Origin: Psammoneis japonica
Taxonomy: Eukaryota
Length of the DNA: 64,000 bases
Direction: 5' to 3'
NCBI GenBank assembly: GCA_008632985.1
Contig: QPGO01000020.1
Location: 62,001-126,000, forward strand
Both the position numbers and the translations under genes were made by a program. Shown piece by piece: positions 3,001 through 28,050 of the stretch; position 1 is the stretch's first letter; each line of letters starts with the position of its first letter. Below the pieces are notes generated by a model. That model did no database searches and was not told where the DNA came from. It saw only the letters and a program-made list of their open reading frames with translations.

Positions 3001-4180
3001 CACAAAGAGGCTCTGACCATCCTTCTGCAGCAGCACAAAGGCTCCCAACCACCACAAGTGGCAGTGCTGGTGCAAAGACTCTAACCACCACAGGTGGCAG
3101 CAGTGCAAAGGTTCCAACTGTCCTTTCTGGAAAAGTGCAAAGGCTCTGACGGTTCTTTTGCAGTGGCACAAAAGGCTTCAACCATCCGCACAAATGCTCC
3201 CGACCACCACAAGTGGCAGCAATGCAAGACTTTGATCACCACAGGTGGCAGCAGTGCAAAAGCTCCAACTTTCCTTTTGGCAGCAGTGCAAAGACTCCAG
3301 CAGTTGTTCTGCAGTGGCACAAAGGCTCTGGCCATCCTTCTGCAGCAGCACCAAGACTCCCAACCACCACAAGTGGCAGCAACACAAAGACTCTAACCAC
3401 CACAGGTGGGGGCAGCACAAAAGCTCCAACCATCCTTTCTGAAGTGGCGCAAAGGCTCCAACAGTCCTTTTGCAGTGGTGCAAAAGGATCCAACCATCCT
3501 TTTGCAGCAGCGCAAAGACTCTGCACTGCCACAAATGGCGGCAGTGCAAACACTCTAATTGCCGAAGGGCAGCGGCGCAGAGCAGCACAAAGTCTTCAAC
3601 CATTCTTTCTGAAACGGTTCAAAGACTGCAATGCTCTTTTTGCAGTGGTGCAAAAGCTCCCAGCCATTGAAAGTGACAGCAGCACAAAGGCTTTAACTGC
3701 TGCAGGCGGCGGCACAAAGGCAAAACGTGCCATTCATGCATGGGCACAGAAATGAAGCCATGAGAACAAGCTCTGTCAGGCCAACCATGTGTCATGCATG
3801 CATCAACAAAACTCCCATGGCTCATGCAAAATGGGCCATTCTCCTGAACCAGCTGTCAATGCAGACTCTGTCATTGCATTAAGAAAGATGTGCTGCATGA
3901 CATGGCTTTGGGAAAGTTCTGGCGCCACCGCCGCCCTGCCATGTCAACATGATTGTGAAATTGCCATTGGCTTTGTGCAAATTTTTGAATGAGCTAATGG
4001 GGCAACTGCCATTTTGGCATGTTCCCAATTGAAATTGTGTGCTGGAGCTGTGCACGAGTTTCTGGCAGCACTCCAAAAATGAGCTGGACAAGCTGTCTCT
4101 CTGTTGACTTTCCTGCACATTTTGGCACAGGGCTTTCAGGTTGCTTCAGGATGTTGATGTTGCTGTTTGTTTTTGTTTTG
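1..4180. repeat. Degenerate repeat/TE-derived block, depleted of TpA and CpG
   Basis: Very few TA or CG dinucleotides and a large excess of TG/CA. Only spurious Cys/His/Gln-rich ORFs. Normal composition resumes at ~4180. The family cannot be recognised by eye. Confidence 0.6.
2940..3720. repeat. Degenerate minisatellite, ~30-33 bp units
   Basis: Recurrent motifs accaccacaagtggcagcagtgcaaag(g/a)ctc and ccatcctt(c/t)tgcagcagcacaaag. Confidence 0.7.
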
Positions 4181-6574: not shown

Positions 6575-6738
6575 TGCAGTGACTCACTCGCACGCTTCTG
6601 ACACATAATGTTAATTTTGGACATTAGATTAACGTAGCCGTTTGAGAGGGCTCGCCAGCGCTCGCTGACGCTTAGGCTCTCCCTCTCTTCGGTCTGCTCA
6701 CTTCCTTGTTTTGACACCAACCTCAGCTTGAGCTTGCA
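6575..6738 (+). repeat. 5' LTR of Gypsy element
   Basis: Direct repeat of 11829-11992, with 13 differences in my manual alignment, all transitions. Confidence 0.95.
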
Positions 6739-6972
6739 CTGCAGTTGCAGTCGATTGTAAAGAGCTGAATGAGAAACAACGATGCAACTGACAGGCTTGC
6801 GAAACAAGAGAAAAGAACTTTGAGAGCGAAGGCAGTGAACTGGGCTTTGGAACAAAAATGAGAAAAGGAGATACGAAAACAACGCGAACAGAATGTTTGG
6901 CGATTCGAGTGGCACAACTCGAGTCGAAGGTGGAGCACTTGAAACAGTTCCTTGGTGGACCAACTTGGCCTG

Positions 6973-9900
6973 ATGAGTGATCGCGAGAGCCTCAAGGAAC
7001 CGTGCATCTTGCATGCTGCGAAATTTGCCCATTCGGATTTGGAACTCGCAAAACTGACCCAATCGTATGATGATGGTGGCACGCGCACAAAAAAGTGCCC
7101 TTGTTTTGATGGAAGCAATGGGATTGAAGCGTTGTTGTTTGTGGAAGACCGTTTTCGTAAACTGGCTGCAAAACTTGAGTTCACTGCAGGAGAAGAATTG
7201 TTTGATGATTTTGAAGAAGTGTTGACAGACACAGCCGAAGACAAATGGTCCGCGCAGAAGATGGCAGCTCGTTTTGACCAAGAGTTGGCTCGTTTTTGTT
7301 TGTCGCATTGTGAAACTGAAGCTCGTGACACGATGATTGAATGCTTGCTTGCTCTCAAAAAGCCGTGTGACGTTGAAGTGCAGGCACACGCAGATCGAAT
7401 GGAAACTTTGGCACAACACACAAACAAGTTGCCGGGAAATGATCCAGTTGTCACTCAGAACCAGAAGAAGAAGATGATTTTTGACAGCTTCCCTCTGTCG
7501 TGGCGCGAGATGCACACAAGAGCAGGACGCACGATTGGAAATGACACACTGGCGGAGATTGTCACGTGTGTGAGCATGGAGAAATTGTTTGCGGATGGGA
7601 ACAAGAAGACGTCAAAAAAGCGCAAAGATGGACAGTCTAAAGGTGGCTCCAATGAGAAGAAAGGCAACCACATTGACCCAGAAACCCAATGTCCATTGCA
7701 CACTCACAATCACAAGTGGAAAGATTGCATCATGAATCCCGACTCCAACAACTGCCATCCAAGAACTGATCGTGGCGGTCGCGGGTGTGGTGGCCATGGT
7801 GGTTGAGGTGGCAGTCGCAGTGGAGGTCGTGGTCATGGCAGAAATCAAGGTCGTGGTTGGCAAGGCCGTGGCTGTCAAGGTCGTGGCAGTGGCCGAGGAA
7901 ATTGTGGCGGTCAAGGAAACTGCAACTCTGGTGGCAATGGCGGCGAGCATCATGAAGATGGTGGCTCCCACGTGCAATGTCAAAACGACACCCGAGCCAA
8001 TGCAGATGGCGGCGGTCATGGTGATCCGGCCAGAATGGCTCCTCCTGATGATTGGTCTGCTGAAAGCCATCATCTTGATTCGATGGGAGGGCCTCGTGAG
8101 TGTCGAGGTGGAGCAGGAAGTTTTCGACCTGGTGGTCGCTTCTCGGGACGCCATCGACACTGACCCAATGAGCTTGAAGAGCTGCAGTCCGAGTGTGTCG
8201 CTCATGATTCCCACATGTTTGATGATTGCACTGATTGCACTGATGATTGTCACGCACATGCTGCTGATTTGTTTGATGATGACGATTTCAAAAATTGCAC
8301 TGTGAATGACGAAGACGATGTGGGACTTGAGCACGCTGCACCAACCCCAAAAACAAAACCAACCAAACCTTTGAACGTGGTCCCTGCAACCTCATTCGCA
8401 GCGCGATTTGTGCAAGACAAGGAAAGCAAGCGCGTGATGCGGGTGTTGCTCGACTCTGGTGGAACCCATTCAATGATTCATGCTCGGGTGTTGCCAATTG
8501 GAGCAGTGCCAGCATTGGAGGAAACAGGGCCAATTGTTGTGAAGTTTTGGACGTCAGCGGGAGAATTCAAATCTGCTCGTTACGTTCGACTGCGGGACAT
8601 GGTGCTCCCTGAATTTGACAAGACAAAACGCATTGATGGCATGCATGCACATGTGTTTGACTCACCTTGCCAGCATGACATGATCCTTGGACAGGACTTC
8701 TTGGCGAGAGCAGGTGTCACGTTAGATTTTGAACACGGGATTGTCAAGTGGCTTGATTCAAGCATTGCAATGAAGCCAAGAAACCATCGGATTGGCATCC
8801 AGCAGTGGCTTGACGACTTGACTGATGAGCCAGCTGACGATGATGATGTGTGGGACAGCTGCATCCTCGATGCAAAGCATGAGGAAACGTCCCCTTCTGA
8901 AGCAGCGTCGGCTCAGAAGCACCTCACTGCCAAACAACAAGAAAAATTACGCCTTGTGTTGGAAAAACACACCACTCTTTTTGATGGCACTCTCGGCAAG
9001 CATGCTGGCAAAAAAGTTCACCTTGACATTGATCCTGACGCTGTTCCTTGCCATTCTCGAGCGCATGCAGTGCCGCACAATGATCTCGAGACTTTCAAAC
9101 GAGAACTGGATCATTTGGTGATTCTTGGCGTTCTTGAAGAGGCCGGAACAACGGAATGGGCTGCTGGCACTTTTGTTTGGCCAAAGAAGGATGGTCGAGT
9201 GCGGTGGCTCAGCGATTTTTGGGAACTCAACAAAGCCCTCAAGCACAAGGTTTGCCCTTTGCCGATCATTCAAGATGTGCTGCAGAAGAGAGCCGGGCGC
9301 AAGTTTTTGACTAAATTGGACCTCTCAATGATGCACCATGCACTCGAATTGGATGACGATTCCAAGGACTTGATGACAATCGTGACACCCTTTGGAAAGT
9401 GCCGATGCTGCCGTTCAGCAATGGGTCTGAAGCCGGCTCCAGACATTGTGCAATGTTCAATTGAGAAAACTGTGCACGACTTGGACGTTGACGCGTGTGT
9501 TGATGATCTTGCTCAATTTGATGACGACTTTGACATTCACCTTGACCGTCTTGACAAACTTTTACAACGCCTGGAGGAAGCTGGATTCAAAGTAAATCCC
9601 TTGAAATGCGAATGGTGTGTGCAGGAAACGGATTTCCTTGGGCATTGGCTGACTCCGACTGGAATTCGTCCGTGGAAGAAAAAGGTGGAGGCTGTCCTGC
9701 GGATGCAACCTCCGGAAAACATCAAGCAGCTTCGTTCGTTCCTTGGTGCTGTGACGCATTGTCGCAGTGTGTGGCCTCGGCGTTCTCACCTGTTGAAACC
9801 CTTGACAGATCTCACAGGCAAAGGCTCATGGACATGGACAGCGGAATGTCAGGCGGCATTCGATGAGATGAAAGCAGTCCCAGCGGCTGAAACATTGATG

Positions 9901-11706
9901 GCACACCCGAATCACAACAAACCCTTCCACATCTGCACCGATGCAAGTGATTGCCAGATGGGTGCAGTGATTGTGCAGGATGGAAAGCCCACTGCACACT
10001 GGTCTCGAAAGCTCAATGCGGCGCAACAAAACTGTTCGACAATCGAAAAAGAACTGCCAGCCATTGTCATGTGCTTCCGAGAATGCCGAACAATGCTCCT
10101 TGGCGGCGACTTGCATGCATTCACTGACCACAAGAACCTTGCCTTTCGCACCTTGAATTCACAGCGCGCACTTCGTTGGCGACTCTTTCTGGAAGACTTT
10201 GCCCCTCAATTTCATTGCATTGAAGGCCGATTGAATGTCTTGGCTGATTGTTTTTCTCGTTTGCCTCGCATGGATCCTCCCTCTGAAGGGAAGAGCTTGG
10301 CTCCGGGCAAAGGAACTGTTGTCGATTTTGCCCCGCTCAATTCGAAGTTGGTGCCGAGTGAGGAACCATCCGAAGTCGAGGATTTCCACGATGAGGACTT
10401 GGAGCTCGGCGCATGCCGATTCAAGTGTTGTCGCAACATTGAAAATGAAGGCCACTCACACTTCTTCTCTTTCTTTGTGGATGAGCCGGAACTGTTCGAT
10501 TCCTTCTTGAATTGCCCTGCTGTGCAGGAGATGCAGAATCCAATGACGTTGCAACACATTCAGGAGCATCAGTTCGAGGACCAACAGTTGAACCAGATGC
10601 GCATTGCTCACCCTGATCATTTCCTCGTGGAATGTGTGAATGATCGACCGCTTGCATGTTGTCGTGCGCGACCGAATGATCCTCCAGGACAGTGGAAAAT
10701 CTGTTTGCCGACTGCGCTTGTGCCCGACATCTTACGGTGGTGTCATCTCGTCCTTGGCCATGCCGGAAGCCAGCGCATGCGTGAGATGATCCAGGCTCAT
10801 TGTCATCATCCTGGGTTGTGTTGCATGTGTGATGAATGCTCTTGTGCTGATTGTCAACGTAACAAAACATTGGGTCCTGGCTGTGGAGAGTTGCCCGAGC
10901 AAGAAGCTGCATTAACTCCCTGGTCGGAAGTGGCGGTTGATCTCATTGGCCCATGGAAAATCAAAGCACCAGATGGAGAGATTGAGTTTCGGGCATTGAC
11001 CTGTGTTGATCCTGTCTCTGATCTTGTTGAGCTGGTGAGAATTGAAAATAAAACTGCCCGACATGTTGCCAACCAATTTGAAAACTGCTGGCTTGCACGC
11101 TGTCCCAGACCGAATCGATGCATCCACGATGACGGTGGCGAGTTCACCGGGTGCGATTTTCAGATGCTGTTGCAACGAGCCGGAATTGATGATGTGCTGA
11201 CTGCTTCGTACAATCCTCAAGCCAACGCCATTTGCGAACAAATGCACCAGACCGTCGGCAATGTGTTGCGAACGCTCATTGCTTCCAATCCACCTCAAAA
11301 TCTTCAAGATGCAGCCAGCCTCGTGGACGATGCTTTGGCAACTGCAATGCATGCAACTCGCTGTGCTGTTTCCCATTCTTTGCAGATTTCACCAGGTGCC
11401 ATGGTGTTCAGACGTGACATGATCCTAGACATCCCTGTGCTGGCAGACTCATTGACGATCCAAGGCCATCGCCAGACGCTGATCAACAATGATTTGCAAA
11501 GAGCTGATGCCAAGAGAAGATCCTGCGATTGTCAAGTGGGTGATCAAGTTCCAATCAAGTCGGTTAACCCGTCCAGCCTCGAGCCTCGTGCTCATGGCCC
11601 TCATCCTGTTGTTCAAGTGCATGTGAATGGCATGCTTTTGCTTCGTCGAGCTCCTCATGTGGTTGAGCGCCTCAACATTCGGCGCCTGATTCCTTTTCGT
11701 GGTTGA
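6973..11706 (+). pseudogene. Gypsy gag-pol in a single frame, with two in-frame TGA stops (7804-7806, 8161-8163)
   Basis: ORF pieces 6952-7806, 7972-8163 and 8215-11706 share one frame. Motifs: CPLH..HKW..C (gag), LLDSGG (protease), LDLS and ACVDD (RT, from YxDD), CTDASDCQ (RNase H, from YTDASDY), H..GH...C..C and VDLIGP (integrase). Confidence 0.93.
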
Positions 11707-11828
11707 TCAGGGGGGTTTCTTCCCAACACCTGGGTTTCCTCCTGCCGTTGTGATTTCTTTGGGTTTTGGCAACTGGTTTTGGCCCTTTGCATGATCCTCC
11801 AGTTCTTTTGGATCATGGAAGGGAAGAG

Positions 11829-11992
11829 TGCAGTGACTCACTCGCACGCTTCTGACACACAGCACCAATTTTGGACATTGGATTAATGCAGCCATTTGAG
11901 AGGGCTCGCCAGCGCTCGCTGATGCTTGGGCTCTCCCTCTCTTCGGTCTGCTCACTTCCTTGTTTTGACATCAACCTCAGCTTGAGCTTGCA
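11829..11992 (+). repeat. 3' LTR of Gypsy element
   Basis: Follows the PPT and is followed by TSD GCTTC. Confidence 0.95.
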
Positions 11993-12018
11993 GCTTCTCC
12001 CGTGCAATTCAACACTTG

Positions 12019-15000
12019 CAGCTTTCCCTGCAATCAAACAAAACGCCGCAGAATTTGTGTGGGACACACCAGCTTTTTGTGACATGTCCGCTTTGACGTC
12101 ATCGCAACAATCTTGAAGCACGAGAAAAAGCATGAGACAATGGCGCTGGTGGAATCGGCTTTTTTGTGGTTTTGCTGCTGAGTCCTCTCTGATCCCCCTG
12201 CACAGCTTGACAGCAAACACCCGTCAAAATGTCACAAGGCAATGCAATCAGAGCGTCTCGGTCGACACCGACTGGCATCATCACTTTGCATTTCAGGGAT
12301 GCATGCAAGATGCCGAAGTTCCAGTGCAGATGGATCAAGGCGAACTGTTTTGTGCATGTGACAAAAGAGGCCTGTGCAATTGACAAAGATTTGAACTTCA
12401 ATGCCAAGAAGTTGAACAGTGCATTGAGTGGAGTTGGATCTCCATTTCCAGAAATTGACAAGGACACGTCTGAGAACGATGGCGGGGTTTTCCGAAAGCA
12501 GTTCCGACCGAAGGGAGAGCCGTCTGTTGTGGCACACTGTGCCTGCAAAGAGCAAGAATTGCCAAGGTGTGTGCCCTCAACAATCAATGATCTCAGGTGT
12601 GTGATGTTGACTGTTGAAGAGTGCAACAAGAAAGTAGAAACTCGAGCCGGCTCCAGCAAGAGAACAGCGGGGTACGACGCAAACGAGTGCGCACAGACGT
12701 TGCAGGAAACAAGCAAAGAAAAAGAAAAGGAAAGAACCACTAGAGTCCTCTGCAACAGAGGAGAAATCATCCAATGATGGTGGTGCTGATGAAGACAACA
12801 CTCCTGAGAATGATGCCACGCCTGCCAATGATTTGACCGCTGTTGTTGGCATCTTCTGGGATGACACGACCGTGCGGAACCTGTTCAATGCAGATGATGG
12901 AGAGGATGCAAAAAAGACAATTGAGAAACAGACAGATAAATTGACTTCTGGATTTGCTTTTCATGATGGATGGAAAGAAGTGATCAAAGGAGGTGACCCT
13001 GACAACCTGTGCACACCCAACGACGCTCATGTGTGATTCGATTGAGATGCCAGCATCTTGCGATCGCGCTTGACCATGCGTTGAAGAAGCTGCCAAAAAG
13101 GAACACTGCATGGCTTGACTGCTGTCAGCATGCAATCGATGACCTCAGCGGTGCAGGTGTTAACTTTATGAAAAGTTGCCAAACCGCAGCTGCTTGGCAT
13201 CGCATCTTTAGGAATCTCAGTTCCTTTCCTCATCCCCGACCAAAAGGAAAAGGAGACCCACCGACATTTGAAGCACATCCAAAGATGAAGCGGAAATTCA
13301 TTGAGTTTGTGACAGCAAACCTTTCTCGACTTTCTGCTGAGGTGGCCACAGACCACTTCCACGAAGTGCTTGTCCCGGAATTCTTAAAGAGAGAGAACAA
13401 TGACCATCGCAAGAACGGGGAAGACATCTTGTAGTCAGAACGGGAGTTCCTGAATCAGCATGGATTGCTCACCGGGGAAAACCAACCATGCATTTCTTCC
13501 AATGCAGTTTCCAACTGGATGAATCTATTTGGTTTCTGGCATGGGCCAAACAAAAAGATGCACCATGTTGACAATCATGAATGTCCCGACAATGTGAGGT
13601 GTCGGAATGCGATGGTCCGTCGATGCTTGATGATGGAAGAACGATGCCCACGTTGGATGCAACTTCCAAAAGCCACTGCCATGGACCTTGTCAAAGCTGA
13701 AGCTCTCCCAGCAAAAATGGGGCATGAATGCCAAGTCGATGGAGAAGATTTTGTCGAGCATCATGTCAACACTGTCATCGACCCGGAGCATCCAAGCCTT
13801 GTGCCCAAGCTGTCCGTGCAATTTGGAGGAAGTGAAAGTGTGAGAAAGGATCCGAATGTAAAGCCTGTCATGACATTTGGACAGGACGAGGCCATTTTTA
13901 AGCAACACTTGCTAAGCACAAGCAGCTGGTCGGGTCCCAAAGGTGAGTGGCCGCTGCTGCCCAAAGATGATGGAGAAGGCGTGATGCAGTCTGTGTTTCA
14001 ATGTCGAGAGGTCGGCCTCATTCAAGATGGAGACATTTCGGAAGAGCAACTCCAAGAGACAAATGAAACTCGAGCAGGCAAACACTGCACTGATGAAGAT
14101 GCTGCAGAAACAGCATTCAGCAAGAAGCAGCACAAGCCGAAGTTGAAGAAAAGTCCATTCATCCGCGAGTTCAAGCATGGAGCAAACAGCGACAGACACT
14201 GGAATTGTGACCACATGTTGGTGCAATTGGAGGATTGCGTGGATTGCTTGAAAGTGCTGCATCCTCAATTTGACTGTCATTTCCTTTTTGATCATTCTTG
14301 CGGGCACGACAAGCAGAGAGCAGACGGACCAATCTGCAACAAGCGCACGATGAATGCAGGAGTCGGCAGCAGTCAGAACAAGATGCACCCCACTGAGATT
14401 CTTCAGGCAGAGGGCTTTCTAGGTCCTCATGCTGAAGCAGTTGGCATGTTGTCTGCAGGACAAGTGCAAACAATGGCATTCAGTGAGGAAGACCAGGGAC
14501 CATGCTGGATGATGCCGGAAGAACGAGAAGCTGAGAAATGTGACGCACCTGTCGAGGGTCAAACTGAAACTCGGAAGTTCCTGCGTGATGAAATTTTTGA
14601 CAAGCTTCTACAAAAGAACATCAAGAACATCAGGGGCAAGAAAAAGGATGAATTGATTGACACAGCAAAGAGCAACAACATGCCTGTCAAAGAAACCATT
14701 CAAAAGGTGAAGCACGGATGGGTCAACAAGCCGAAAGGATCAAAGCAAATTTTGCATGAGCAAGGATGGATTGATCCCAATGACCCTGGAAAATGCACTG
14801 TGGATGGCACAAAGGGCAAAGATGGAGAGATCGACAAGTCAACATCTCTTCTTCACTTGATGGCCACTTGCGATGATTTCGTCAACGAAGAGACGTTGTT
14901 GCAAACCATGGGTCGCAAAATGGGTGTGACCATTGACAGAACGCCAAAGTGTCACCCACAATGGCTGGGGAGGGCATTGAATGTTCTTGGGGACTCGCAA

Positions 15001-15464
15001 AGCAGCATTGTTGTTTGCAACCTTTGTCAAGAAAGAGGGGAAAGCAAAACTTTAGAGAGTTGGCACGAGAATCAATGTCATCAAGCGCACTCACGACTGA
15101 CAGGATGCAAAAGTTCTCGCGACGAGCACGACGATGCATTTGTGCTTGCATGGTTCTTTCACAACCTGATGTGTCTCAAGAGGTTCAGCATGAAGCCTTG
15201 TCTCTTGAGACCATTGAAAAGCTTGTCAAAGAGTTCAAAACGCACCGCAGTGCCACTGATTTTGACAAGGGTTTCATTGTGAGGACGCTTTTCGCAGGGT
15301 GAAAAGATGTTTTTTTTGCAGGCAAATAAAAAACTTTAGAATGTGGACAAGTTTTATGTGCAACGCTGCTGGCGATTTTACTTTGGCTTTTTGCATGAAA
15401 AACAAATTTTCCCACCAGTGGCGTGGGATCAATGCGACGTTTGGGTTGGTTGCAGGGAAAGCTG
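12019..15464 (+). mobile_element. Tc1/mariner(ITm)-like TIR DNA transposon, degenerate
   Basis: ~32-bp TIRs: cagctttccctgcaatcaaacaaaacgccgca (12019-12050) and the reverse complement of 15433-15464, with 4 mismatches. Flanks read TG and CA where a TA TSD is expected. Contains a DDE transposase remnant. Confidence 0.85.
12229..15302 (+). pseudogene. DDE transposase pseudogene with stops and frameshifts
   Basis: Motifs FGQDEAIF, PLLPKDDGEG, FLFDHSCGH and TPKCHP/AGEGIECSWG (frameshift near 14960). Tyr positions are replaced by Cys/His. Confidence 0.8.
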
Positions 15465-18400
15465 CAATGGCGAATGACAATCAGACATTGCAAAACCTCA
15501 AAGCACATGTGTCAAAGCTGTCTCCACATGAGCAAGGTTCTGGGAAAGCATTTTGGTGTCAACAAGTGCTCTCGAGCACCACTCGCCATTCAGGCGGGAA
15601 ATCGTGGCACTGGTTTGATGCAGAAACTGCGCAGAAAGGAAGGAATGTTGTGGAACTCAATGAACAGACCAACCTGACAAATCAGTGTTTAGAACTTGTC
15701 TTTTGCACCTGAAGAGCACATGACATGTTTGGATGACTTGCTCACATTGTTTCGGGGGGCGGCAGGAGAGACATTGGCTGAATTGCATGTGGCTTGGGGG
15801 GGGAATCTTTTGCACGCACCCCATTTCATCTGGCCATCTTCCACATGGAATGGGTCAATTGTCAAGAAACAAATGACCTCACACTTGACTTTACATCATG
15901 TGAATGTGTTCAGTCATGAGGACATTGCAGACACCTTGCAATGGCCCCCTGTCGATTGACCCAGTCTGCAGCAATTTGAGATGATTGCAAAATTTTCAGA
16001 GCCCCTCGTCCTTTGAGCATTGAAAGTGATTTGTCCAGTGCTCTGTGCAAATGGAGAATTGCTCCACTGCACACTCACAATTTGAGAATTTGTTTCTTTG
16101 CAACAACTGAGCTCTTCATCAGCCCAAAAGCTTGGCGGACGTCATCAGGAGATGACTCTGACAGCACACGCTTCCTCTGTGCTGAGTGAGACAAAAGAGA
16201 CAACCAGCCACAATGTCATTTTCTCTAAAACCTGCTCAGGCCATCACAGGCATTTTTGACTTTGTGGAGAAAAGCTCACAAAGCCATCTGCAACAAGGCA
16301 GTTGAGAAGCTCAAGGAGAGTGGCCTTGGCTGCACACAGCAGGAGAAACTGCTTCAGCTCCTCAAGACCCTTAGCGATGGAGCTGCCAAGAATGGATGGA
16401 ACAAAGCTGATGGAATGTTGATGATTCCTGATGATCCAGTGGACATCATGTCTGATGTCACCAATTTGTTGACACACTGTGTTCAAATCAAGGCGGAGCT
16501 CATGTCTTTGTTTGTGAGCACATTTGCATTGATCAAATGGCAAGGCCAGCACACGATGCAAGGATGCTGTGCCACCTGCTCATGATTGCACTTTCTGAAG
16601 AAGAAAAGACTGGAATTGTGGTCTGGGAAAAGCAATGCAAAATTCTCAAGAATGACAAGATGAGTCTGTTGGGAAACATTCTGTTGAAGGTGACAATCCA
16701 AGAAAGACACCAATGGAGCTGCAATGAGCATCAGGAGGATGAAAAACTTGGCAATGTTGACAAGTGCATTGACCCAGCATTGAGCAATGTTGCCAAATTC
16801 ACTCAATGCATGCTGCTCTTGGCACCTGATGCAAGCTCTCAAGTCCCATGATGAGACAACAGAAGGTCATCCAATTGAACTTGTTTGAAGGATGCACTGC
16901 AGTGTCCGACAAGACATTTGTTGATTGCATCCATTGCAAGCACAATGAGTGTGATGAAGGACATGACATGGACCCCCAATGAACTTGCAAACCTCATTGT
17001 CAATGAGTGCAAGAAGATGGTTGAGAGGGAGGAATGGAGTGCATCATCCCTTGAGGAGGAAAAGATTCTGGCTCTAGAAGTGAAGGTTGATGTCCTTAAA
17101 CCATCTCAAGGCAAAAAGACCAATCCAAAAATGAGGGAAATCCAAAGAGTCAGAAGAAAGGAGAGAAGAAGACGCATGGACCCAAGCCTGCTTGGTTGGA
17201 GAAGGACAAAAGACACACAAACAATCAACTTCACAAGCCCCAGCATTGGAGCAACAAGCCATGACACTGTTGTTGTCACAAGGACACATGCGGAAAGTGT
17301 GGTGGAAAGTGGTGGATCCATGAACCACGCATGTGAAGGAAAAGCCTTCCTTGCTTGGAAACCATGCGGTGCAAAAAGTCCTTCAGAGAAAAACAATCAG
17401 TCAACATCAACCAAGAAAGTCCAAAAGGACCTCAAGTCACTCAAGCTGTCAGAAGCACTCACTGCTCTTGCAGACAAGATTGAGACCTCAGATGAAGAAT
17501 GGCTGGTGGCAGAGCAAGGCAACGAGCCCAACTGTGATTGGGAAAATCATGGCATTGCAGTCTGCATGATGTCCTTTGCAACATGGTGCACAACTGCAAT
17601 TTGCAGCTCTCTGCTGCTGCTGTTGCTGCCACCAATGCAATTCATGTAGATGGCTGTGTCCTGCAATTGGATCTCCATCACAGTCTGGGGAAAAAATTGC
17701 CAAGAGATGCAACCGCAAATGCTGCTCCAAACAAATTTGTTGCTGGAGCTCACACATCACTGGCAATTGCTGTTTTCTGTCTCATTGTTTTTGTTGGCAA
17801 GGACCCCAACAATCCCAATCTGTGCTTCATTTCACAGTTGCAGTGTTGGAGGAAATGCTGAAGATTGATGCAGCAGGCCCAGTGAAGCATGCAATGGACA
17901 GAAAACAGACTGGTTGATTTGTTGTTTGTTGAAAGTGGGGTCAATTGACTGTCCACAGTCAAGCAATCCCAAACGGGGCAAGAGTCAGGCAAGTTCAAGA
18001 GTCACTGAGCAAGATCAACAACGAGCATCAAAGAAGGCATTCAACACAAATGACAGCAGCACTGGCCATCCTGGCAGTGTGCATGATGGCCCAGAATGAT
18101 GCCCTCAAGTGAGACAAAACATGACTCAATTTGACACAGATTCAGGGCCTGCAGGCATGGACAACTGATGATGCAGGGGATGTGTGTCCAGTGCAGCCAC
18201 AGACTTTGCAAGTGAGCTTGTTCTAAGCATTGAGCCACAAAAGGATTCAGAGGGTCAAGAACAATGGAAGTCATGATGGGCACATTGACAATGGTGCAAT
18301 GACAACAGGGCTGCTCACTTGTTGTTTAAAACCCCAAACTTGCACTGTGCACCCAATGGCAAAGTCCGCCTGTTGAGTCCCCAGCACATCTGTGACATGT

Positions 18401-20379
18401 TTCCATGCTTGACAAGAGCACAACTTGTCAATGATTGAAATTTGTCACATGCATGCTGATTGCATCCACAGATCTTCCCAACACACACAATTGTCAATTT
18501 TGTTTCTTTGCAGTTGTCAAGTCACAACAAATGAATCTTTTTTGCTCATTTTAAGCCACCTGTGTGGCTCATTCTGTCCACATTGTAAACACTTGTTAAG
18601 AACAGTTTCATTTGTTTTTTCCTTCCATTTGTTGTCAGATCTCTGCCTTTGTTTAAAATGCCTGTGTGGCTCACATGAGTGTTTTCTCTGTGTGCAGCAG
18701 TTTGCTGGTTCAGTCTGTTGTGGCAAAGGAAAGTGAGCATGGCAACATGTTTCTAAAAGGCACTCGAGTGATGTGTTTCCCATCACAAAAACATCAAACC
18801 AAACATGAAGATTGTGGAGGCCACAATGCTTCTCATCACTGCATTTCCAGCTGGCTTGCAAGGTGTGTGGATGAATCCTCACATTGCACATGAGGCACCA
18901 CAGTGTGGTGGCTTTTCCAGGACTTCATAAGTCCAGAATCTTGTCTGGCCTCTGAGGTGCCTCAAATTGAAAAAATTTGGTGTCAGTCCCTCCCATGCAC
19001 AGGCAACTGCTGCAAGGGATTTGGGAAGTGCTGCCGTGCTGTTGCTTGGTCAGTTGAAAAATCCAGCACAGCTGCTGTGAAGCACAGGAGTCCAAAGTGT
19101 TTGCTTTTTAAGGATGTGATGATTTCCAGAGCATTTTCATTCAATGATGATCAGAAAAAATCAATCTGAGAAAACACAATGTGATGAGCATGTTGGGCAT
19201 TTTGCCACATGGGAGTTGCTCAAGAAGCAACGACCTTTCAAGACATCAACACAATGCTTTGCAGAGCATTTCTTTTAAAACAAACCCAGAATCAAGAGTT
19301 TTAGAATAAAAACCTGGAACACTCCAGAGCTGTGGCAAATGCTCTTTCATGCCAACAAGAAACAGCAGTGCTTCTAGTCACAGCACAGTTGCCCCAGCTC
19401 TGACCATTTTTGCACTGCTCCTTGCCCTTGCCATTCTCTGGTGGGCAGGCATTGCGAATGTCCAAAAAGGATTCTTTGGTTTCCGTTGCCTCTGGCAATG
19501 CATGTGTGGCATTTGTTTGACACCACCAATCCATGCAAGACACCGTTTGTGGTTCTTTCCACATTCAAAACTTCTCCATCAACAAAGGGACAGCCGCAAG
19601 GGCATTCCATGTCTCCCGCTTGTGCCTCTTCCTTCATTTCTTTCATCATTTTGGTGCCCATGGCAGAGGCATTTGTTGTGTTGCTTCTTGGCAATGGCAA
19701 CATTAATTTGAGACACACAATTCTTGTCACAACAAAAATGCTTCTGCTGTCGATCCTTTTGATCAAACCTTTTGATCAAACCTCACCAACAAAATCTTTG
19801 CATCTCATGAATCAAGCAATGGCTCTGCTGCTTGGAAAGCCACTGCCAGATGACAGAGACTGGGAAGATTGTTTCATTTTCTTCCCTGTCACCACTGCAA
19901 ATGAAGACAATGGCCAGAGTTCACGAGCCACACACCCTCAGTTCCAAGGGGTTCATTCTGGTGTTGAGTTTGATGACATGTCTTGGCATCTCCAATTTGA
20001 GCAACAGGCTTGCCAGGTGGATGGTGCATGATGCACAGGTCAAAGCCAATTGAGAAGCAAAAATGGAGCATGTGGTGGTGTCCCCATGTCCCAGCACACA
20101 TTTGCCAAATGCCAAGCCAGATCATCATCATCGCTGCAAATGCACATTGGTTTGAGTTGCGGCCTGCATGACACGCACCCCAGATGCACTCAATCTGCAT
20201 TTGTTGAGCAGGTTGGCCCAATTGTGGTGTCTTTGCACTCTTGATTTGGGAAGCTGCAATCCTTCTTGTCTTGGTGGGCAGCAGCAGCCCTGTCACACGA
20301 TTCCTTCACAAACAAGAAGATGCCCGGCTGCACAAAGTGTGGAAGCATGAGGCCCACAGATGTGGCAAAGGAGGTGTGC

Positions 20380-21600
20380 AGCCATCTTGAGATGGCATTG
20401 GAGGACTCCAGTGGGTTGCCAGGGACATGCCAACAACCATGGTTGGGGAGCAAATGCCTTGTCTTGTGTCAATGCAGCACCTTGTCTCTCTGACATGACT
20501 GGCTTTGGCCCAGCCAGCCAACCTGCAGAAAGAAGAAAACCATCTGTGTGACAGGGCAAGTGCTCCATTGTCTTGGGATGGCATTGGATGACTCCATTGG
20601 GTCCCTGAAGATGCAACAACAACAAAGGTTGCAAAGCAAAGGCCTTGTCTTTTGTCAATGCAGCACCCAGTCTCTTTGACATGACTGGGCTGTTTGGCCC
20701 AGCCACCCCACCTGCAAGGACAAGAAAACCATCTGTGTGACAGTGCAAGTGCTCCGTTGTCTTGGGATGGCATTGGATGACTCTGTTGGTTCCCAGAGGA
20801 TGCAATGACAACTGTGGTTGGGAAGCAAAGGCCTTGTCTTGTGGCAACACAGCACACTGTCTCTCTGAGGCTGACATGACTGTGTTCTTTTGCCCAGCAA
20901 CCCCACCCACAGAGAGACAAGAAAACCATCTGTGTGACAGTGCAAGTGCTCTGTTGTCTTCTTGGGATGGCTTTTGGCAACTCCATTGGATCCCAGAGGA
21001 GCTAACAACAACCATGGTTGGGAAGCAAATGTCTTGTCTTGTGTCAATGCAGCACATTGTGTCTCTGACATGATTGGGTTTGGCCCAGCCAGCCTGCCCG
21101 CCCACCCACAGAGGTGAGAAAACCATCTGTGCAACAGCACAAGTGCTCAGTTGTCTTGAGATGGCTTTTGGTGACTCCATTGGATCCCAGAGCAGCCAGC
21201 AACAACAATGGTTGGGAAGAAAAGGCCTTGTCTTGTGTCAGCGCAGGACCTTGTCTCTCTAACATGACTGGGCTTGGCCCAGCCATCCCACCCACAGAGA
21301 CAAATCTGTGCAACAGTGCAAGTGCTCAGTTGTCTTGGGATGGCTTGGTGACTCCATTGGATCCCAGAGGATCCAACAACAACAATGGTTGGGAAGAAAA
21401 GGCCTTGTCTTGTTGGGAAGGAAAAGCCTGGTCTTGGGCCAATGCAGCCTTTTTTCTGTCTGACATGATTGGCTTGCTTTGGCCCAGCCACCTTTCCCAA
21501 AGAGACAAGAGAGCTTTCTGTGCTGTGTGACAGTGCAAGTGCCCAGTTGTCTTTGGATGGCCTTGGGTGCCTCCATTGTGACCCAGGGGAGCCAACAACA
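20380..21600. repeat. Tandem array of ~190-bp units, ~6 copies
   Basis: Motif aaaaccatctgtg(tg/ca)acag..caagtgct recurs at ~20537, 20726, 20922, 21120, 21302 and 21520. Confidence 0.85.
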
Positions 21601-24600
21601 GCTGGGGCCGGGAGTCAGTGAATGGAAATTCATGGTGTTCCCTGTCTCTTGTTTGGATGGAAAGCCAAGAGAGAGCAGAACAGCAAGACCCACTGTCAAT
21701 TGCTCACTTTCTTTACAAGGTGGGTCTCCAAAGTTGTCATTTTGCTGGCATGAAGGGTCTGTTTCTGAGCTTTCTGGAGAGAGGCAATTGTCTTGTTGGC
21801 AGCAGCAATTTTTGAACACACCAAATGGCAAAAAGGTGTTGATTGAGGTCCCAGAGCTGGGAGTGGGAGTGTGCAGGCAGAAGTGTGAATTTCCAATCTC
21901 AACAAGAACACTTTGGTGTGATGAAGTCAAACCTGTTGAATGCATGCCTGATGTCAATGAACAAATGATTCATCAAGGCTCACAGTTTGGCCAAAAACAT
22001 GAATTGTCCCTCCCTCACAAGACACCAAAAATGCAAACTCAAGTCACAAGCATTGCATGAAAATGAGAGCGGCAGTGACAGGCAGTGGCATTGCAGATGG
22101 GACAGAATGGAATGCAGGACACAAGATGAGAAAGAGAAAACAAGTGGCAAATGCACAGAGATTGGGTGCACAATGCAAACAACTGACACTTGCACACATC
22201 TTTGCACACAGACATCTGGACAGTGACCTGAGATGCAAAGGAAGACGGCAACCGGGAAGGGCACAAAGGTGAGCAAAAGCAGCACATGAGACAAGATTGT
22301 GGGAAACGCAAGACATGTGTAAAAACTGATCATTGGCACAAAGTTTTCTCCAGTTGCATGCAACATTTTGGCCAATCAAACAGAAGGAACAACCATCAAA
22401 CCAAATTGGAAGGTTCTGGTGATTGTTGCACACCCTTTGTTGACAATTGTCAAGAACTTGTTGTGAACACAGGATTCTGAACAAGAGAGTGTGAATTCTG
22501 AACAAGAGCAAATGTGTTTTCCAGATGCATTGTGGGCAAAGACACAAAAGGTCTGCAAGCTGGCTGAAGGTGCAGGGGGAAGCATGGGTTGCAAGCAGTG
22601 CACACTGCACCGGAGTCAAAAGAGAAATAAACTCACTCTTCTCCTGAGTCCAGAGACCAATGTGGCAATGTTCAACCTTGCTCCTGGTTGCCAGAAGTTT
22701 GAGGCCTTCCATGATGAATGTGGAATCAACAACACTGCTGAAAACAATGATCCTGTTGAAGCAAACAAAGCAAACATTGTGAGCAACAAATGGGAGGAAG
22801 AAGACAAGGAAATCCAATGACTCAGGGTTGGTCAGATGCACCTGGACCTTGAACCCAATGAAGGCTGTGTTGCACCATGCAAAGCATGACAAGCATGCCT
22901 CAGGGTTCTTGGAGAGCAATGCTTCAGTTGCTGCTCCACTCAATTTGGATGGACCACCTGAGGGCATGAGTGAAACAAGTTCACTCTAAGTTGTGACAGA
23001 TGAGGAAGGTTGGCAGAAAAAAATGCATCACCACAATTGTTGAGACTTCACCAAAAATGTGGGAACATCTCATTCCTGAAACTGCAAGAAATGGTGGAGC
23101 AGGGAGTCATCCCAAAGCATTTGGCAAAACACAATGCACCTGCATGCTCCTCCTCATGCATGTTTGCAAAAGCAACCAAGCACAAGTGGCAAATTCTGCA
23201 ACAAGAAGGAACACAATTCACAGAAGCCAACATGACCGGGTCAAGTGATTTCAGCAGATCAGACAGTGTCGCTGACTCCGGGGCTGACTGTGCGCCAGAT
23301 GGCGGGGTTCTGACAACCAAGCTGAGATGCAAGTGCGCAACAGCATGTGTTGATCAACACTCCCACTTCAACCATGCGCACCTGCAAAAGACAGCAAGCA
23401 TGGAAGAGATGTCAGAAGGAAAGAAAGCCTTTGAGCTCATGGCAATGAATTGCTGGGTCAAGGCACCAACTTGCCATGCAGACAATGGGGCATCTAAGGT
23501 GAGGCAATGGATGCAAGCATGTTGTGACCAAGGACAAGGATTGCACATGCAGGCATCAATGCACACCACATGAATGGCTTTGCAGAGCACTGCATGTGCA
23601 AGCTGCAGGAACATGATGCATGAAGTGTGCTCATGCGTGCAAATGGATGATGGCCTTCAAGCAAAAACACAGCCAACTTGTGACCACATGCTGTCCAAAA
23701 AGCAAACAATGCAATCAATGAAACATCCAGCTTCCAGAATCCTGGGTGCAAGACTCCTCTGACTCAGTTGCAAATGCAAACAGACATCTTGAGCAACCCC
23801 AAATCATGTGCCAGACAACCAGCTCCAAACAAACTGCCCATTTCACAAGTGGAGGCAATGATCAAGGGTTGGAACATGCTTGAGGGTGAGTCCAATGTGT
23901 GTGGCAGCCATGCGGACAAGCCCAGTGCATGGCAGGAATGTTGCCTTGGCGCCAAACAGAGCAACAGTGCACACAAGTCCCCAGCTCCATGTGCAATGTG
24001 ACCCCAGCTCCCAGCTTCCATGTGACAAAACAGGACAAGTTTGACTCAACATGGCAAATGAAAGCCAGAACTGTGAGTCAGAGGGAGGTCAACAAACCAG
24101 CCAAAGGCAAGAACAAGATGCTGCTCATGCTTGAAGCTGCCAACAAGCAGAGCATTTGTCAGCAAAAAGAGGTGGCTGATGCCTCCTTCAGAAAGAGCAT
24201 CAAAGAGGATGAGGTTCAAGAATGTGACAAACCATTTGCAAGATTTTTACAAAACACTGGGGTCACCTAAAGCCAGCAAGCAAGTTGTCAATGCTGCAGC
24301 AGCTGGGTTGCCTCTGGCACAGCCAGAATCTCCAGAAGGGACCTTGGCAGCAGGTGGGTGAGTCTGATCTGCCCAGAGTGCCAAGGACATCAGAGACAAA
24401 CACAAGATCAGGGCAACAGAGCTGGTCAGTTGAGCAGCCAGCACTGGCAATGACAGCTGAACTTGGCACAGATGCAGATGGGAACATTGAGAGAGAGACA
24501 TCTTCACTGACAGCTGCTTCACCACACAATGAATCACACCCATCTCAAATGATGCCAACCCTCTTCCAGAACACAAAGTTTCAAAACAGACCCTGATGTG

Positions 24601-25529
24601 CCAGGCACACATGCACAAAGCAATGAAACAACAAGATTGCAAGGAATTCATCAAGGTGATGTGCAAAAAGGTCAAGGATCAAATGGGATCAAACAAAGAA
24701 TGGAAACTTTGCCACAGTTCCAAGATCAATGGCGGCTGACAAAAGAAAGATGCTTCCAGCTGCATGGCAGATGAAACAAAAATGGGATGTCCTGAGGGAC
24801 ATCCTGACCAGTGCTGTCAAGAAATGGAAGGCAAGATTGAATGCAGACAGATCAAAAATGAGAGAAGGGGTCAATCACAGCAAAACATGTGCTCCATTGG
24901 CATCCTGGAACTCAGCACACATGCTGCTTGCCATGGCAGCAGTGCACAATTGGCGCGCTGAGCACAACTGGATTGTGTCTTGGCTTTTAAAAACAGGCTC
25001 CTGCAGAGCATCAGATTTGCATGCAGACTCCAAAAGGATTTGAAGTCGACAAAGGAAATTTGAAGAACTTTGCACTGCACCTGAGTGAGAATCTTTCAAG
25101 ACCACAGAAACAAGCTGGACAAGCATGGAGCAAGTGCCTGGACCTTGGTGGGCAGAAACAAGCCAGACGAGCATGTGTGGAACAAGCACCTGTTCAACGA
25201 GTTTGCAAAGGAGCTGAGCTTTGCACAGCCCAAGTTCCAGCATGAGTGTGCACTCTGCCAAGGCAACACAGAGCACTTGCCATGTGCTGATGACAGCTTG
25301 TTGGCAGGGCCCAAAATGACAAAGAGAGATTTGGCGACAAAAGCTGAGCTCTGGAAATTGCAAAGACCCACAAGTGCCTTCCAAGAACCAAAAACTTGAA
25401 CGCACAGCTGCACCACTTCAGAGACTGTGTGTCCAGGGGAGAAATTTCCATCCATCCTGTATCCTGTCTGTGCAAAGGAGCAAGTCGCCGATGAAAGTCT
25501 TGACTTGACTTCTGACAGGCTGAAACACA

Positions 25530-25813
25530 TATGAAATGTATTCAGTCATGAGGACATCATACGGACATAAAGAAATGGCCCCCGTCGATTGATCCAATCG
25601 ACTGTAATTCGAAACGAGTACACGAAATGATCAGAATCCCTCCTTAGAGCGTTGAAAGTGTTCTGTTCAACGCTCTGTGCAAATAATGGAGAATACTCCA
25701 CTACACTCAAAATTTGTGAATTTACTTCACTGTAACAACTAAACTCTTTATCAGTCCAAATACTTGGTGAACGTCGCCAGGAGATTCGACGGACAGTAGT
25801 TAGGTATTCTAAC
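25530..25813 (+). repeat. Copia LTR-like segment that retains TpA
   Basis: Similar to 15895-16165 (ttcagtcatgaggacat, aatggcccc.gtcgattga, ttgaaagtg, ctctgtgcaaat). Ends ...ttctaaca. Confidence 0.6.
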
Positions 25814-26048
25814 ACACGATACATCGCGGAACGCATCGGTCGGTCGGCCGAACCCGTCCTTCCTTCGCTTGCGGTAGGCATCCATCTACCGGTAAATCAA
25901 CCTCTTTTCTCAAGTTTCGTCCGCCAAAGCTGGTTCTAAAAATAATGAAATCACTCTAACATAGGTATTTGGATGATTCTACGTATAAGATAATAAGGTA
26001 GTCCAAATCGAACAAAAATGAATGCGGTAGGAAGAACGACACCAGGAC

Positions 26049-27548
26049 TCATGTGCTTTCTTCTTCCTTCTGTTGCAGTCGCCTTCGTTTTTGTCTTGCA
26101 CGGTTTCGTGCTTTTGACTTTGTCTTCTTTGCTCTTGCCTTTGCCGTTTTTACAGAAGCTCGGCTTTGGCTTCCGTTCAAGAATTCGTCTAGCTTGTATC
26201 TCAATCGCTTCCGGGCGATATTTCGATTTTGAGACAGAGATCGTGTTTCTTGACACTCCACGCGGAGTTGAGTTGGCTTGTGCAACAGAACAACGCGGTT
26301 AGCTGTTTTGTTGATTTTCTGTCCACCCGCACCAGAGCCCCGGACAAAAGATTCTTCCAACTCACTTTCCTGGAGCATCGGTAGCTCTCCTTTCTTGGCA
26401 CCGCCACTGCTGCTGCTTCTTTCGAGTCGATTCATTTCCAGAGCAATCTCTTCCACAATCGACTGACGCAACGAGGAGTCTGGAAGCAGAGCAACCAACT
26501 CCGAAAACACATCTAATGCCAACAAATCCGTTGTTGGTACGAGGGATGGTTCCGGACACGAAATGGGATCCTGTCGCGCGTCGCGAAACAGTTGGAGAAC
26601 ACCTTTAACATACGACTCTAGCCGATGCTTTGAGACCAGACCTATAGCATTGTCGTTATCGACAGCCTCTTTCTGTAAATTTGATGATGCTTGTTTCAGA
26701 GAGAGAAATCGGTCTTGACCTAACGCTAACTGTATTTCTGATGACACCTGAGCTTGCCGTTGCCGATTCCATTCTAGGATACGATCACGCTCTTGCTTCC
26801 ACTCGTCATAAGTCTTGACAACGTCTTGAATTGTCTGACCTCCATTGTTCCTTCCGAAGACTCTGTCAATGCGACGGCTGCGATCCCATACAATGCGTTC
26901 TCGGTACCGGATTGCCACAATACGGTGCTCTGGCAATGCCATGACAAACATAGTTTGAGACCCAGCAACTGATTTGTTGGGCAAGTCCATTGGTGCTTCC
27001 ATGACCTTGTCATCTACTCGATCATAATAGAGAATAACAAAATCTTCTTCCGACAAATGTGGATCATATTGGATGCGTCGCAACACCTCCGCTGCCGGAA
27101 CTAGTTTGTCTCGCGCCCCGCCTGTGGTTGAAGCTTCGCTTTCCGCTGTTCCTTTGCTGTCGCTAAACAGGCGTTCATACGCTGGACTATTCACATCATT
27201 TAGCTTTTCCAAGCGACGTTCTACACCCCCGAGTCCACGTCCCAAGAGACAAGATAGTTCTGGCAAGCTGTCCTCTCGGTGCTCCCACAAAAGGCGATCT
27301 TGCTCGATCGTCCATTCTCGATACACATTCTCCATCGGTTCGGGGTTGCTTGATGCTGTGATTGTGGCGAATAAGCGAGATGACGAAATGCCTTGAACCG
27401 ATGATTTGGAATATTGAAGAAAGGATGCATGCGGAGAATGGCTAGTGAGAGCCAATCGTGTGACTCGCCTTCCACCAAACCCCATCGTTCTACACACTAG
27501 TGTCATCATCATGGTCGTGACAACTAGAAACAACCACGCATTTGTCAT
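26049..27548 (-). CDS. Organelle-targeted protein fusing an MJ1316-like domain with a class I release-factor GGQ peptidyl-tRNA hydrolase domain (C12orf65/ArfB-like), 499 aa
   Basis: N-terminal signal peptide and Ser-rich transit-like region. EVLRRIQYDP...YYDRV...LPEHRI...IVWDR (MJ1316-like). FVRGSGAGGQKINKT...CQETRSL..NR plus a basic tail (RF-1 domain). Confidence 0.85.
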   Translation of the reverse strand: MTNAWLFLVVTTMMMTLVCRTMGFGGRRVTRLALTSHSPHASFLQYSKSSVQGISSSRLFATITASSNPEPMENVYREWTIEQDRLLWEHREDSLPELSCLLGRGLGGVERRLEKLNDVNSPAYERLFSDSKGTAESEASTTGGARDKLVPAAEVLRRIQYDPHLSEEDFVILYYDRVDDKVMEAPMDLPNKSVAGSQTMFVMALPEHRIVAIRYRERIVWDRSRRIDRVFGRNNGGQTIQDVVKTYDEWKQERDRILEWNRQRQAQVSSEIQLALGQDRFLSLKQASSNLQKEAVDNDNAIGLVSKHRLESYVKGVLQLFRDARQDPISCPEPSLVPTTDLLALDVFSELVALLPDSSLRQSIVEEIALEMNRLERSSSSGGAKKGELPMLQESELEESFVRGSGAGGQKINKTANRVVLLHKPTQLRVECQETRSLSQNRNIARKRLRYKLDEFLNGSQSRASVKTAKARAKKTKSKARNRARQKRRRLQQKEEEST

Positions 27549-28050
27549 GTGGAATCAAACTTTGTCGGCAGATTTTTTTTTAGTAAACCAATTGAAAGAT
27601 TGGCATGGCATAAGGAAAATAGAAAGAGCTCACCATAAAATGGAATAAGAAAGGAGAAAGCACAACCAAAGGTAGGAGAGTGGCGGAGCAGTTGGAGTGT
27701 GTCGGCGGACTAGAGTAAAGGTCGGCGGTTTGCGGTTTCTCATTCGCTTCGAACCCGCTCTCGATGACGTGGCTGGTCGCGCAGACACCAGGTACCCACG
27801 ACTAAACGGTCATCAATGCAGACCTTGAAGCACGTGCTACCGATTCCTCTGTAGATTTCTACGGCAAGGCCGACGTCATCCGTTGAAACTGACGGCCACA
27901 GAACGAAACGCGCACTGAACTCTCTTCTTCCTTCTTCCTCTCCATCACATTCATTTTCTCTGGGCTGTTGGAGACCGGAGGCGCTCTAACAAGAAGGAAG
28001 CTTATTCAACGCATACGGTGTATGTATTGTGTTGAGAAATAAAAGCCGCG

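Follow-up and report, generated by a model that had tools for sequence, protein, structure and literature searches.

Among mutation processes with dinucleotide specificity, RIP in ascomycetes targets the CpA context; it is set off by the pairing of homologous sequences ahead of meiosis and involves the RID methyltransferase. The closest described system is Bigelowiella natans, in which TpA-restricted hypermutation affects integrated DNA of NCLDVs and virophages (Mettrop et al., bioRxiv 10.64898/2026.01.13.699255). According to the available portion of that paper, DDE and RT domains are enriched among TpA-poor coding sequences, an ADAT-type deaminase is proposed, and the process continues in some of the lines at a rate raised ~1000-fold; the same portion contains 0 mentions of diatom, stramenopile or context. 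Literature searches turned up published accounts of such a TpA process for the viral inserts of a single rhizarian alga only. Among adenosine deaminases, TadA8e prefers a TA motif, as stated in the accessible part of PMC11022790. The window analysed here is a 64,000-nucleotide stretch of the diatom Psammoneis japonica (GenBank assembly GCA_008632985.1, contig QPGO01000020.1, positions 62,001 to 126,000 of the forward strand). In it, a TpA to TpG/CpA process hit a transposon, the two TAs that make up its duplication and the repeats around it, for the most part independently from copy to copy. The reading that combines a TA target-site duplication with a TpA-directed process has a probability of about 0.97.

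The element, classed as an IS630-Tc1-mariner (ITm) transposon, spans 3,446 bp (12019-15464) and is bounded by 32-bp TIRs, the left one (12019..12050, forward strand) starting with CAG and the right one (15433..15464) lying on the reverse strand. Both are defined by genome copies and by the inverted repeat, which is the longest among 15 pairs in 11000-16500 (35 nt, 89%). At the left junction, TG (12017-12018) is followed from 12019 by CAGCTTTCCC; at the right junction, GGGAAAGCTG ends at 15464 and is followed by CA (15465-15466), so that the flanks given in a preliminary description of this DNA are borne out. An exact search of the genome for the TIR pattern returned eight ends, i.e., four full copies, with 0 control matches. 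Left and right flanks are TG/CA (the window copy), TG/TA, TA/TA (on G000:C65) and CA/TA, which amounts to TA at four ends and TG and CA at two each. Beyond this dinucleotide, the flanks of the four copies are unrelated, and the joint chance that all eight would be TA, TG or CA, given local dinucleotide frequencies, is 2e-6. The copy with TA on both sides is the least mutated one, with 52 TA steps remaining vs 20 in the window copy; the tabulation of flanks proposed earlier thus favours TA, and TG/CA flanks in young copies were absent.

The insertion interrupts an older repeat. Its left part (11993..12016, forward strand) runs straight into 15467 onward at paralogous empty sites, while its right part (15467..15800, forward strand) shows 66-82% identity to 10 other aligned loci. 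Empty sites in these paralogues hold one TG or CA, with a single dinucleotide in 4/5 aligned paralogues; the empty-site pattern gave 17 matches, of which 11 with other spacers were left out, and the C23 match was left out of the alignment. From the flanks of the four copies and the single TG or CA at empty sites, it follows that the duplication was TA, as first suggested, and that it changed after insertion, to TG on the left and to CA on the right. Across 30 loci, a CAG-anchored TIR search gave clear TIRs only in the window element's family and one relative family. The ends of other families were judged by alignment, are ambiguous and were excluded from the tally, save for the duplicated locus L044/L047/L049/L058, in which the dinucleotide next to one end of a related element is TA, TG, CA and CA in 4/5 duplicated loci, the fifth being masked there. 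In a related CAG family, the five flanks readable by eye are TG, TG, CA, CA and CA.

Between the TIRs lies a broken transposase gene (12229..15302, forward strand) of a family of ~1000-aa proteins, with a probable start at the first in-frame ATG of the open reading frame 12211-12777. Besides a TAG at 13432-13434, it carries indels near 12709, 13030 and 14958, and conserved Tyr codons are now read as Cys or His. A putative catalytic triad (13885..14981, forward strand) is formed by D (GQDE, 13885), D (FDHS, 14290) and E (GEGIE, 14979), whose catalytic roles would follow from conservation and the ITm fold. The spacer that separates the second D from the E is 229 aa in the C6 copy and 220-228 aa in 67/106 homologues. 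The fold comparison concerns homologue P0004 rather than the window protein, and the N-terminal ~350 aa lie outside the modelled part. This model (pLDDT 87) aligns with Metnase at Z 13.7 (rmsd 2.8, 190 aligned), followed by Mos1 at Z 13.4-13.6, Sleeping Beauty at 11.9 and integrases from 11.7 down. By its DDE/D RNase H-like fold, as modelled, and its motifs, the element is an ITm transposon, which supports the mariner-type identity initially proposed. Foldseek gave no match at E<=0.001, its top rows being Mos1 at E 0.04; Pfam returned no DDE family in the window transposase pieces or in eight homologues, and searching PDB sequences with a profile yielded no match. HTH_33 matched weakly (E 0.12) in 1/8 homologues, and a SAP-like domain is present in some. 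One lead was that the element may be of the fungal 'Ant1'-type mariner kind. The available text of PMC5751038 and PMC11544213 contains 0 mentions of 'Ant1', and searching the literature for ITm elements of diatoms that carry an insertion domain turned up no paper. The 229-aa spacer lies outside the 34-41 and 78-111 aa given in the accessible part of PMC8533490 for DD34E Tc1, DD34D mariner and DD78-111E Sailor.

The extent of the change can be read from the coding region. Counted over the four copies, the 17 conserved Tyr positions comprise 68 codons, of which 7 still read Tyr, beside 37 Cys, 23 His, 1 Asn and 0 Arg, and 7/52 CGN (Arg) codons have changed; from these two codon classes, TpA decay is ~16-fold faster than CpG decay. 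Copies differ at 13/17 Tyr sites, and both TG and CA are seen at 9/17. The same outcome is shared in 53/82 pairs vs 53% expected, so shared ancestry or context bias may explain part of the change (an in-copy concordance of 193/406 pairs, biased through site choice, was set aside for this unbiased count). Across the four copies, 248/316 variable ungapped columns fall within TA/TG/CA/CG units, and ~2.3 hits per TA compare with ~2% pairwise difference outside such units. Among 787 polarised TA sites, 396 became TG or CA, 352 are unchanged, 39 show other outcomes and 0 are CG.

This decay is regional. The element sits in a TA-depleted block (7001..25000), where TA rho per kb is 0.00-0.14 vs 0.34-0.78 at 25001-41000; across the window, rho is 0.00-0.15 in repeat blocks vs 0.33-0.87 in gene-bearing blocks. 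The same host repeat contains, next to the transposon, a Ty3/gypsy element (6575..11992, forward strand; LTRs 6575-6738 and 11829-11992; pol 8164-11706; 5-bp duplication GCTTC) that is also TA-depleted. The edges of depletion can fall within an element, as comparison of the four copies reveals for the AT-rich 3′ tail that includes the right TIR (15298..15464, forward strand): of its 18 TA sites, 15 are lost in the window copy, compared with 0, 0 and 2 in the remaining copies. In the left TIR, the window copy has lost two TA steps that other copies keep.

Sequence context influences both the frequency and the outcome of the change. Editing reached 238/622 sites with a pyrimidine 3′ of the A vs 158/874 with a purine, and TTAA is the most spared context. 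The duplicated sites stood as T-TA-C on the left and G-TA-A on the right; polarised TTAC sites went to TG 32 times and to CA 5 times, while GTAA sites went to CA 26 times and to TG 3 times. TG on the left and CA on the right are therefore the expected outcome rather than a coin toss. The proposal that two TA copies had mutated into the two possible products stands as regards origin and outcomes, but not in treating the products as equally likely. As for the strand, A>G at a neighbouring A was found in 11/305 cases with the TA edited on the same strand vs 1/339 on the other strand (background 27/4732), a small component of the kind that bystander editing would give; the test was made after examples in the window element's family had been seen, and the two other families alone give 5/196 vs 1/198 (p=0.12). 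One LTR difference in the window, inspected by eye, comprises two changes on opposite strands, against the bystander pattern. Long same-strand runs or long-range strand coordination appeared in 0/12 run tests at p<0.05, which argues against an agent that is processive across tens of bases.

Altogether, these findings show that an ITm cut-and-paste transposon entered an older repeat at a TA, duplicating it, and that A:T to G:C changes later occurred at A preceded by T, on either strand and confined to repeat domains. A TadA/ADAT-type (or ADAR-type) enzyme, drawn to the chromatin of silenced transposons, may have deaminated the adenine of TpA in DNA to hypoxanthine, which would then be fixed as G at replication. 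Such a process would kill transposases and remove TA landing sites, in the manner of a RIP-like defence of opposite polarity, although this role in defence is presumed from its effects. DNA adenosine deamination, linked to the locus by the mutation spectrum, would be the likeliest mechanism, at even odds, and the account as a whole, from TA insertion to defence, is just as finely balanced. Searches for deaminases (5 and 4 matches) found ADAT2-like and editase genes and no special candidate enzyme; since these are expected housekeeping genes, the ADAT2-like one being universal, their presence supports nothing. Tentatively, and with the odds slightly against it, diatoms could possess a natural adenine base editor, i.e., a deaminase of the host that, once guided to the chromatin or transcripts of transposons, would rewrite nearly all TpA soon after landing, kill the transposase with an occasional adjacent same-strand A edit and erase ITm landing sites. 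In three copies, the edge where the coding region ends would then mark the end of a guiding transcript, and the kind shared with Rhizaria would point to an old SAR genome defence, a mirror image of RIP.

Two other mechanisms have to be weighed, both unlikely. Error-prone repair synthesis by a polymerase-eta-like enzyme, called in when mismatch repair acts on T:G left by deaminated 5mC, would yield A>G in methylated repeats; the CpG decay that co-occurs in the same TA-depleted blocks, the tandem same-strand A>G and the WA hotspot of pol eta count for it. However, A>G singletons stand at background after A (5/2304, with 7/2048 after G) vs 25/312 after T, AA is undepleted (rho 1.24-1.26 vs 1.15), and 5mC lesions seem too few to drive the loss of TA, since about nine in ten TA (~90%) vs 13% of CpG are lost in the same elements. 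A TpA-directed base modification, e.g., methylated or oxidised A or T in repeat chromatin that is miscoded or mis-repaired to G:C, would make the mutations an epigenetic by-product. Domain confinement with sharp edges would suit such a modification, and so would hits that fall independently on the two strands and form no long runs, in the way of 5mC at CpG; the modification is nevertheless improbable: ApT, the usual eukaryotic 6mA context, is barely depleted (0.84-0.91 vs 0.92). The UV photoproduct of TA gives A to T products, and a UV origin was set aside on that ground.

The TA ancestry itself faces weaker objections. An artefact of base calling or polishing in the assembly is very improbable: a contig of public DNA run X1 agrees at every base with 15266-15568, a segment that takes in the right CA, TG/CA swaps between copies are seen in contigs, and the same Tyr to Cys/His scar is borne by 3/212 homologous transposases from other data sets. 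That run, the only one in which this stretch was found, may be the assembly's own sample, and its match covers the right junction, the left TG being absent from the contigs listed; run X2 gave no aligned contig, and no RNA run was among those listed for this stretch. It is hardly credible that the flanks arose from CG by ordinary 5mC deamination, or from TA via CG: the change from CG to TG/CA does occur in this DNA (CG is present in 73 variable units), but half of the flanks are still TA, CG occurs in 0/61 TA-holding columns and at none of the polarised sites, and conserved Tyr never became Arg although CG is long-lived in these copies, which contradicts CG ancestry for this site. That TG and CA belong to the TIR, as the outermost two bases of a 34-35 bp repeat, is the least credible reading, since, although the window alone leaves the TIR end ambiguous (TG and CA are mutual reverse complements, and the repeat-finder arms extend as TTG...CAA to 12016 and 15467), the flanks of the other copies, the base at -3/+3 that differs among copies and the single dinucleotide at empty sites speak against it, and the TA/TA copy refutes it.

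With a TA duplication altered by a TpA-directed process, the target site serves as a selection-free internal control, which fixes both the direction of the change (TA to TG/CA, not CG decay) and its timing after insertion. Transposons in such genomes would be mis-dated, and their target-site duplications and TIR ends mis-called by annotation tools that require TA. A four-copy family that displays all stages, a context rule and a sharp internal edge offers a locus suited to assays, in a group amenable to genetics; should a deaminase be behind the process, it would rank as a DNA adenine editor of natural origin and as a second RIP with the polarity reversed.

Compared with the ITm elements Mos1, Metnase/Hsmar1, Sleeping Beauty and Sailor (DD78-111E), the element shares short TIRs, TA duplication and a DDE catalytic fold, whereas its ~1000-aa transposase has a spacer twice the longest described, that of Sailor, in the part of PMC8533490 consulted. 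With RIP, the present process shares repeat-confined, dinucleotide-specific transitions that kill transposons, but the polarity is opposite: RIP changes C to T and creates TpA, whereas the dominant change here is A:T to G:C at TpA and not C:G to T:A. Homology alone is also argued against as the targeting signal, because the last ~170 bp, repeated four times at >90% identity, escape in 3/4 copies, which pure homology targeting, as in RIP, would not predict. TadA/ADAT and ADAR enzymes and TadA-derived adenine base editors turn A into I that is read as G, favour T/U 5′ of the A and make bystander edits, points on which the present process would resemble them. As far as the available text of the B. 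natans study (bioRxiv 10.64898/2026.01.13.699255) allows comparison, both systems show regional A:T to G:C change at TpA in foreign or selfish DNA, with TpG or CpA as the product according to strand. The rhizarian case concerns viral DNA, its rate has been measured, and TA rho is 0.45 in its NCLDV region; in the diatom, a stramenopile, multi-copy transposons are direct targets, the process is known from its scar alone, rho falls below 0.15, near saturation, and a flanking-base hierarchy and co-occurring CpG decay are features set against B. natans. The spectrum thus matches the TpA hypermutation of B. natans, while the diatom host, the transposon targets and the near-saturation are new.

The element is bounded on the left by TG (12017-12018), next to a TIR whose first bases, CAG, start at 12019, and on the right by CA (15465-15466), next to the reverse TIR ending at 15464. 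The TG/CA pair beside CAG-type TIRs pointed out in the preliminary description is real and is read directly from the window sequence. This TIR pair is the longest inverted repeat of 11000-16500 and extends out to TTG...CAA. TG and CA being reverse complements of each other, a mutated TA duplication and a longer TIR look the same in the window alone. An exact TIR pattern search of the genome returned eight TIR ends, i.e., four complete copies of 3,445-3,451 bp that are 94-96% identical. Tabulating their flanks, as the preliminary description had proposed, gave TG/CA for the window copy and TG/TA, TA/TA and CA/TA for the copies on contigs C6, C65 and C165, respectively. From local composition, the joint chance that all eight flanks fall in TA, TG or CA is 2e-6, and the DNA outside these dinucleotides is unrelated among the copies. 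On its right, the window copy adjoins an older repeat. Of the five paralogues of that repeat aligned across the insertion point, two carry one TG there, two carry one CA and the fifth carries TGTG; a pattern search added a further single TG in an unaligned match. The flanks of the other copies and the single dinucleotide at empty sites therefore indicate that two bases were duplicated and that the TIR starts at CAG, which rules out TG...CA as part of a longer TIR and upholds TA as the ancestral flank. In a related family, one insertion lying in duplicated segments could be read at four of five loci, the fifth being masked: the dinucleotide flanking the same end is TA, TG, CA and CA. The window TSD serves as a clean control for the change of TpA to TpG/CpA.

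The TGTG paralogue (L075, G000:C70:139992-140012) could reflect either slippage or the clean footprint of an independent visit. A contig of the public DNA run X1 joins 12019 to 15466 via five other letters, reading TG, five bases, TA. It is absent from the assembly, which was searched for it, and has a depth of 24.5, roughly half that of unique contigs nearby (53-71). One possibility is a second allele that carries an excision footprint and whose right TA is unmutated; another is a paralogue. On the question of an assembly artefact, a 303-bp contig from the one public DNA run with this stretch, which may derive from the assembly's own sample, matches 15266-15568 with 0 differences.

The coding region gives the direction and strength of TA loss. 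At 17 positions where at least 70% of homologues have Tyr, the codons of the four copies read Tyr 7 times, Cys (TGY) 37 times, His (CAY) 23 times and Asn once, and never Arg (CGY); of the 52 codons at 13 conserved Arg positions of CGN type, 7 changed. This amounts to about 2.3 hits per TA, some 16 times the 0.14 per CG; outside TA/TG/CA/CG units, the pairwise difference is about 2%. Since 13 of the 17 Tyr sites vary among the copies, most of the change postdates their separation; shared outcomes are in mild excess (53/82 copy pairs vs 53% expected). Among the repeats fetched, sites at which one copy has TA number 787: 352 read TA, 210 TG, 186 CA, 39 something else and none CG. A 7-kb segment that occurs four times (L044, L049, L051 and L058, on C42, C367, C440 and C443), with 98-99.5% identity, likewise has an excess of A>G singletons after T (9/695) and of C>T singletons before G (29/2076), and both processes have therefore been recently active.

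Outcome depends on neighbouring bases. Relative to undepleted DNA, residual TA in depleted DNA ranges from 0.002 for ATAT through 0.033 for GTAC to 0.39 for TTAA, and a 3′ pyrimidine is commoner at edited A (238/622 vs 158/874). The pre-insertion site would have been T-TA-A, the most resistant context, which would explain why TA was still present in an old repeat. After insertion, the two TA copies would have sat in TTAC, which yields TG over CA (32 vs 5), and GTAA, which yields CA over TG (26 vs 3); the TG on the left and CA on the right seen in the window would be exactly the favoured outcome.

TA loss is organised in domains, TA rho in the window being 0.00-0.15 in repeat blocks versus 0.33-0.87 in gene-bearing blocks. 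The window copy is embedded in repeats on both sides and lost 15 of 18 TA in the last ~170 bp of the element, compared with 0, 0 and 2 in the three remaining copies; in these, depletion stops within the element, close to the stop codon, and the right TSD is still TA. The depleted C6 copy forms an island in DNA that bears TA on either side, suggesting that the element itself can seed a depleted domain. Conversion is incomplete, since the left TSD of the C65 copy is still TA beside depleted DNA. Older blocks (16001-25000, 1-4000, 42001-56000) have lost CG along with TA (CG rho mostly <0.3), whereas block 7001-16000 has lost TA and kept most CG, so TA loss came first. The neighbouring gypsy element, of a many-copied family (40 matches), has LTRs (6575-6738 and 11829-11992) differing at 13 of 164 positions; by eye, there are 6 TA in the 5′ LTR, which lies at the depleted block's edge, and 1 in the 3′ LTR. 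Undepleted DNA holds ORFs of 1086 aa (33441-36701, minus strand; transposon-like by eye) and 661 aa (37011-38996, minus strand).

Mechanistically, a TadA/ADAT- or ADAR-type enzyme may deaminate adenosine in the DNA of silenced transposon chromatin, a reading to which we give a probability of about 0.5. Neighbouring A changed more often with a TA edit on its own strand than with one on the opposite strand (11/305 vs 1/339, in a post hoc test), an effect that is not significant in the two other families alone (p=0.12), and a search for long same-strand runs of edits found none. The genome holds an ADAT2-like gene and two editase loci, whose presence proves nothing on mechanism. Ranked below deamination, a mutagenic base mark is an improbable source of the TpA change. 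Error-prone repair is similarly unlikely: WA is the motif of the error-prone polymerase type, but A>G stays close to background where A or G precedes, a pattern better suited to a strict TpA agent than to a WA-type polymerase. One locus (L089:319-1791, minus strand; G000:C79:87000-90170) joins a guanine-deaminase-like zinc deaminase domain and a thymine-dioxygenase-like 2OG-Fe(II) oxygenase in one frame; it probably serves nucleobase metabolism, unconnected with hypermutation.

The element encodes a broken member of a ~1000-aa protein family with 82 matches at E<=0.001 (best 43% identity) and 1,825 representatives at E<=1e-30. Pfam recognised no DDE family in the transposase; a structural model of the homologue P0004 (pLDDT 87) matches Metnase (Z 13.7), Mos1 (13.6) and Sleeping Beauty (11.9), with integrases behind. 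That the host is a diatom is borne out by a neighbouring gene, whose hits bearing an organism name are from diatoms. Of 212 homologues in other data sets, 3 (P0057, P0078 and P0316) have at least 40% of the conserved Tyr replaced by Cys or His and 187 have no such replacement. This scar therefore probably exists in other organisms, though it is infrequent in ORF-called proteins. Related transposases at L042 (C59:228206-230698), L048 (C59:289740-291299) and L052 (C262) are only partially TA-depleted, one on C59 having a 1030-aa stop-free frame, and are usable as less-mutated references.

ITm elements are described as duplicating TA (PMC8533490); the longest D2-E spacing in the consulted part of that source is that of Sailor, 78-111, compared with 229 aa here (motifs GQDE, FDHS and GEGIE). 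Literature searches, at the level of listings, found no diatom report of TpA hypermutation. TpA to TpG/CpA hypermutation has been measured in Bigelowiella natans viral inserts, with an ADAT deaminase proposed (Mettrop et al., bioRxiv 10.64898/2026.01.13.699255); the available part of that text mentions neither diatoms nor flanking context. As far as that text goes, the mutation spectrum is identical to that of P. japonica, whereas lineage, targets and depth of hypermutation differ, and the process described here has one published precedent.
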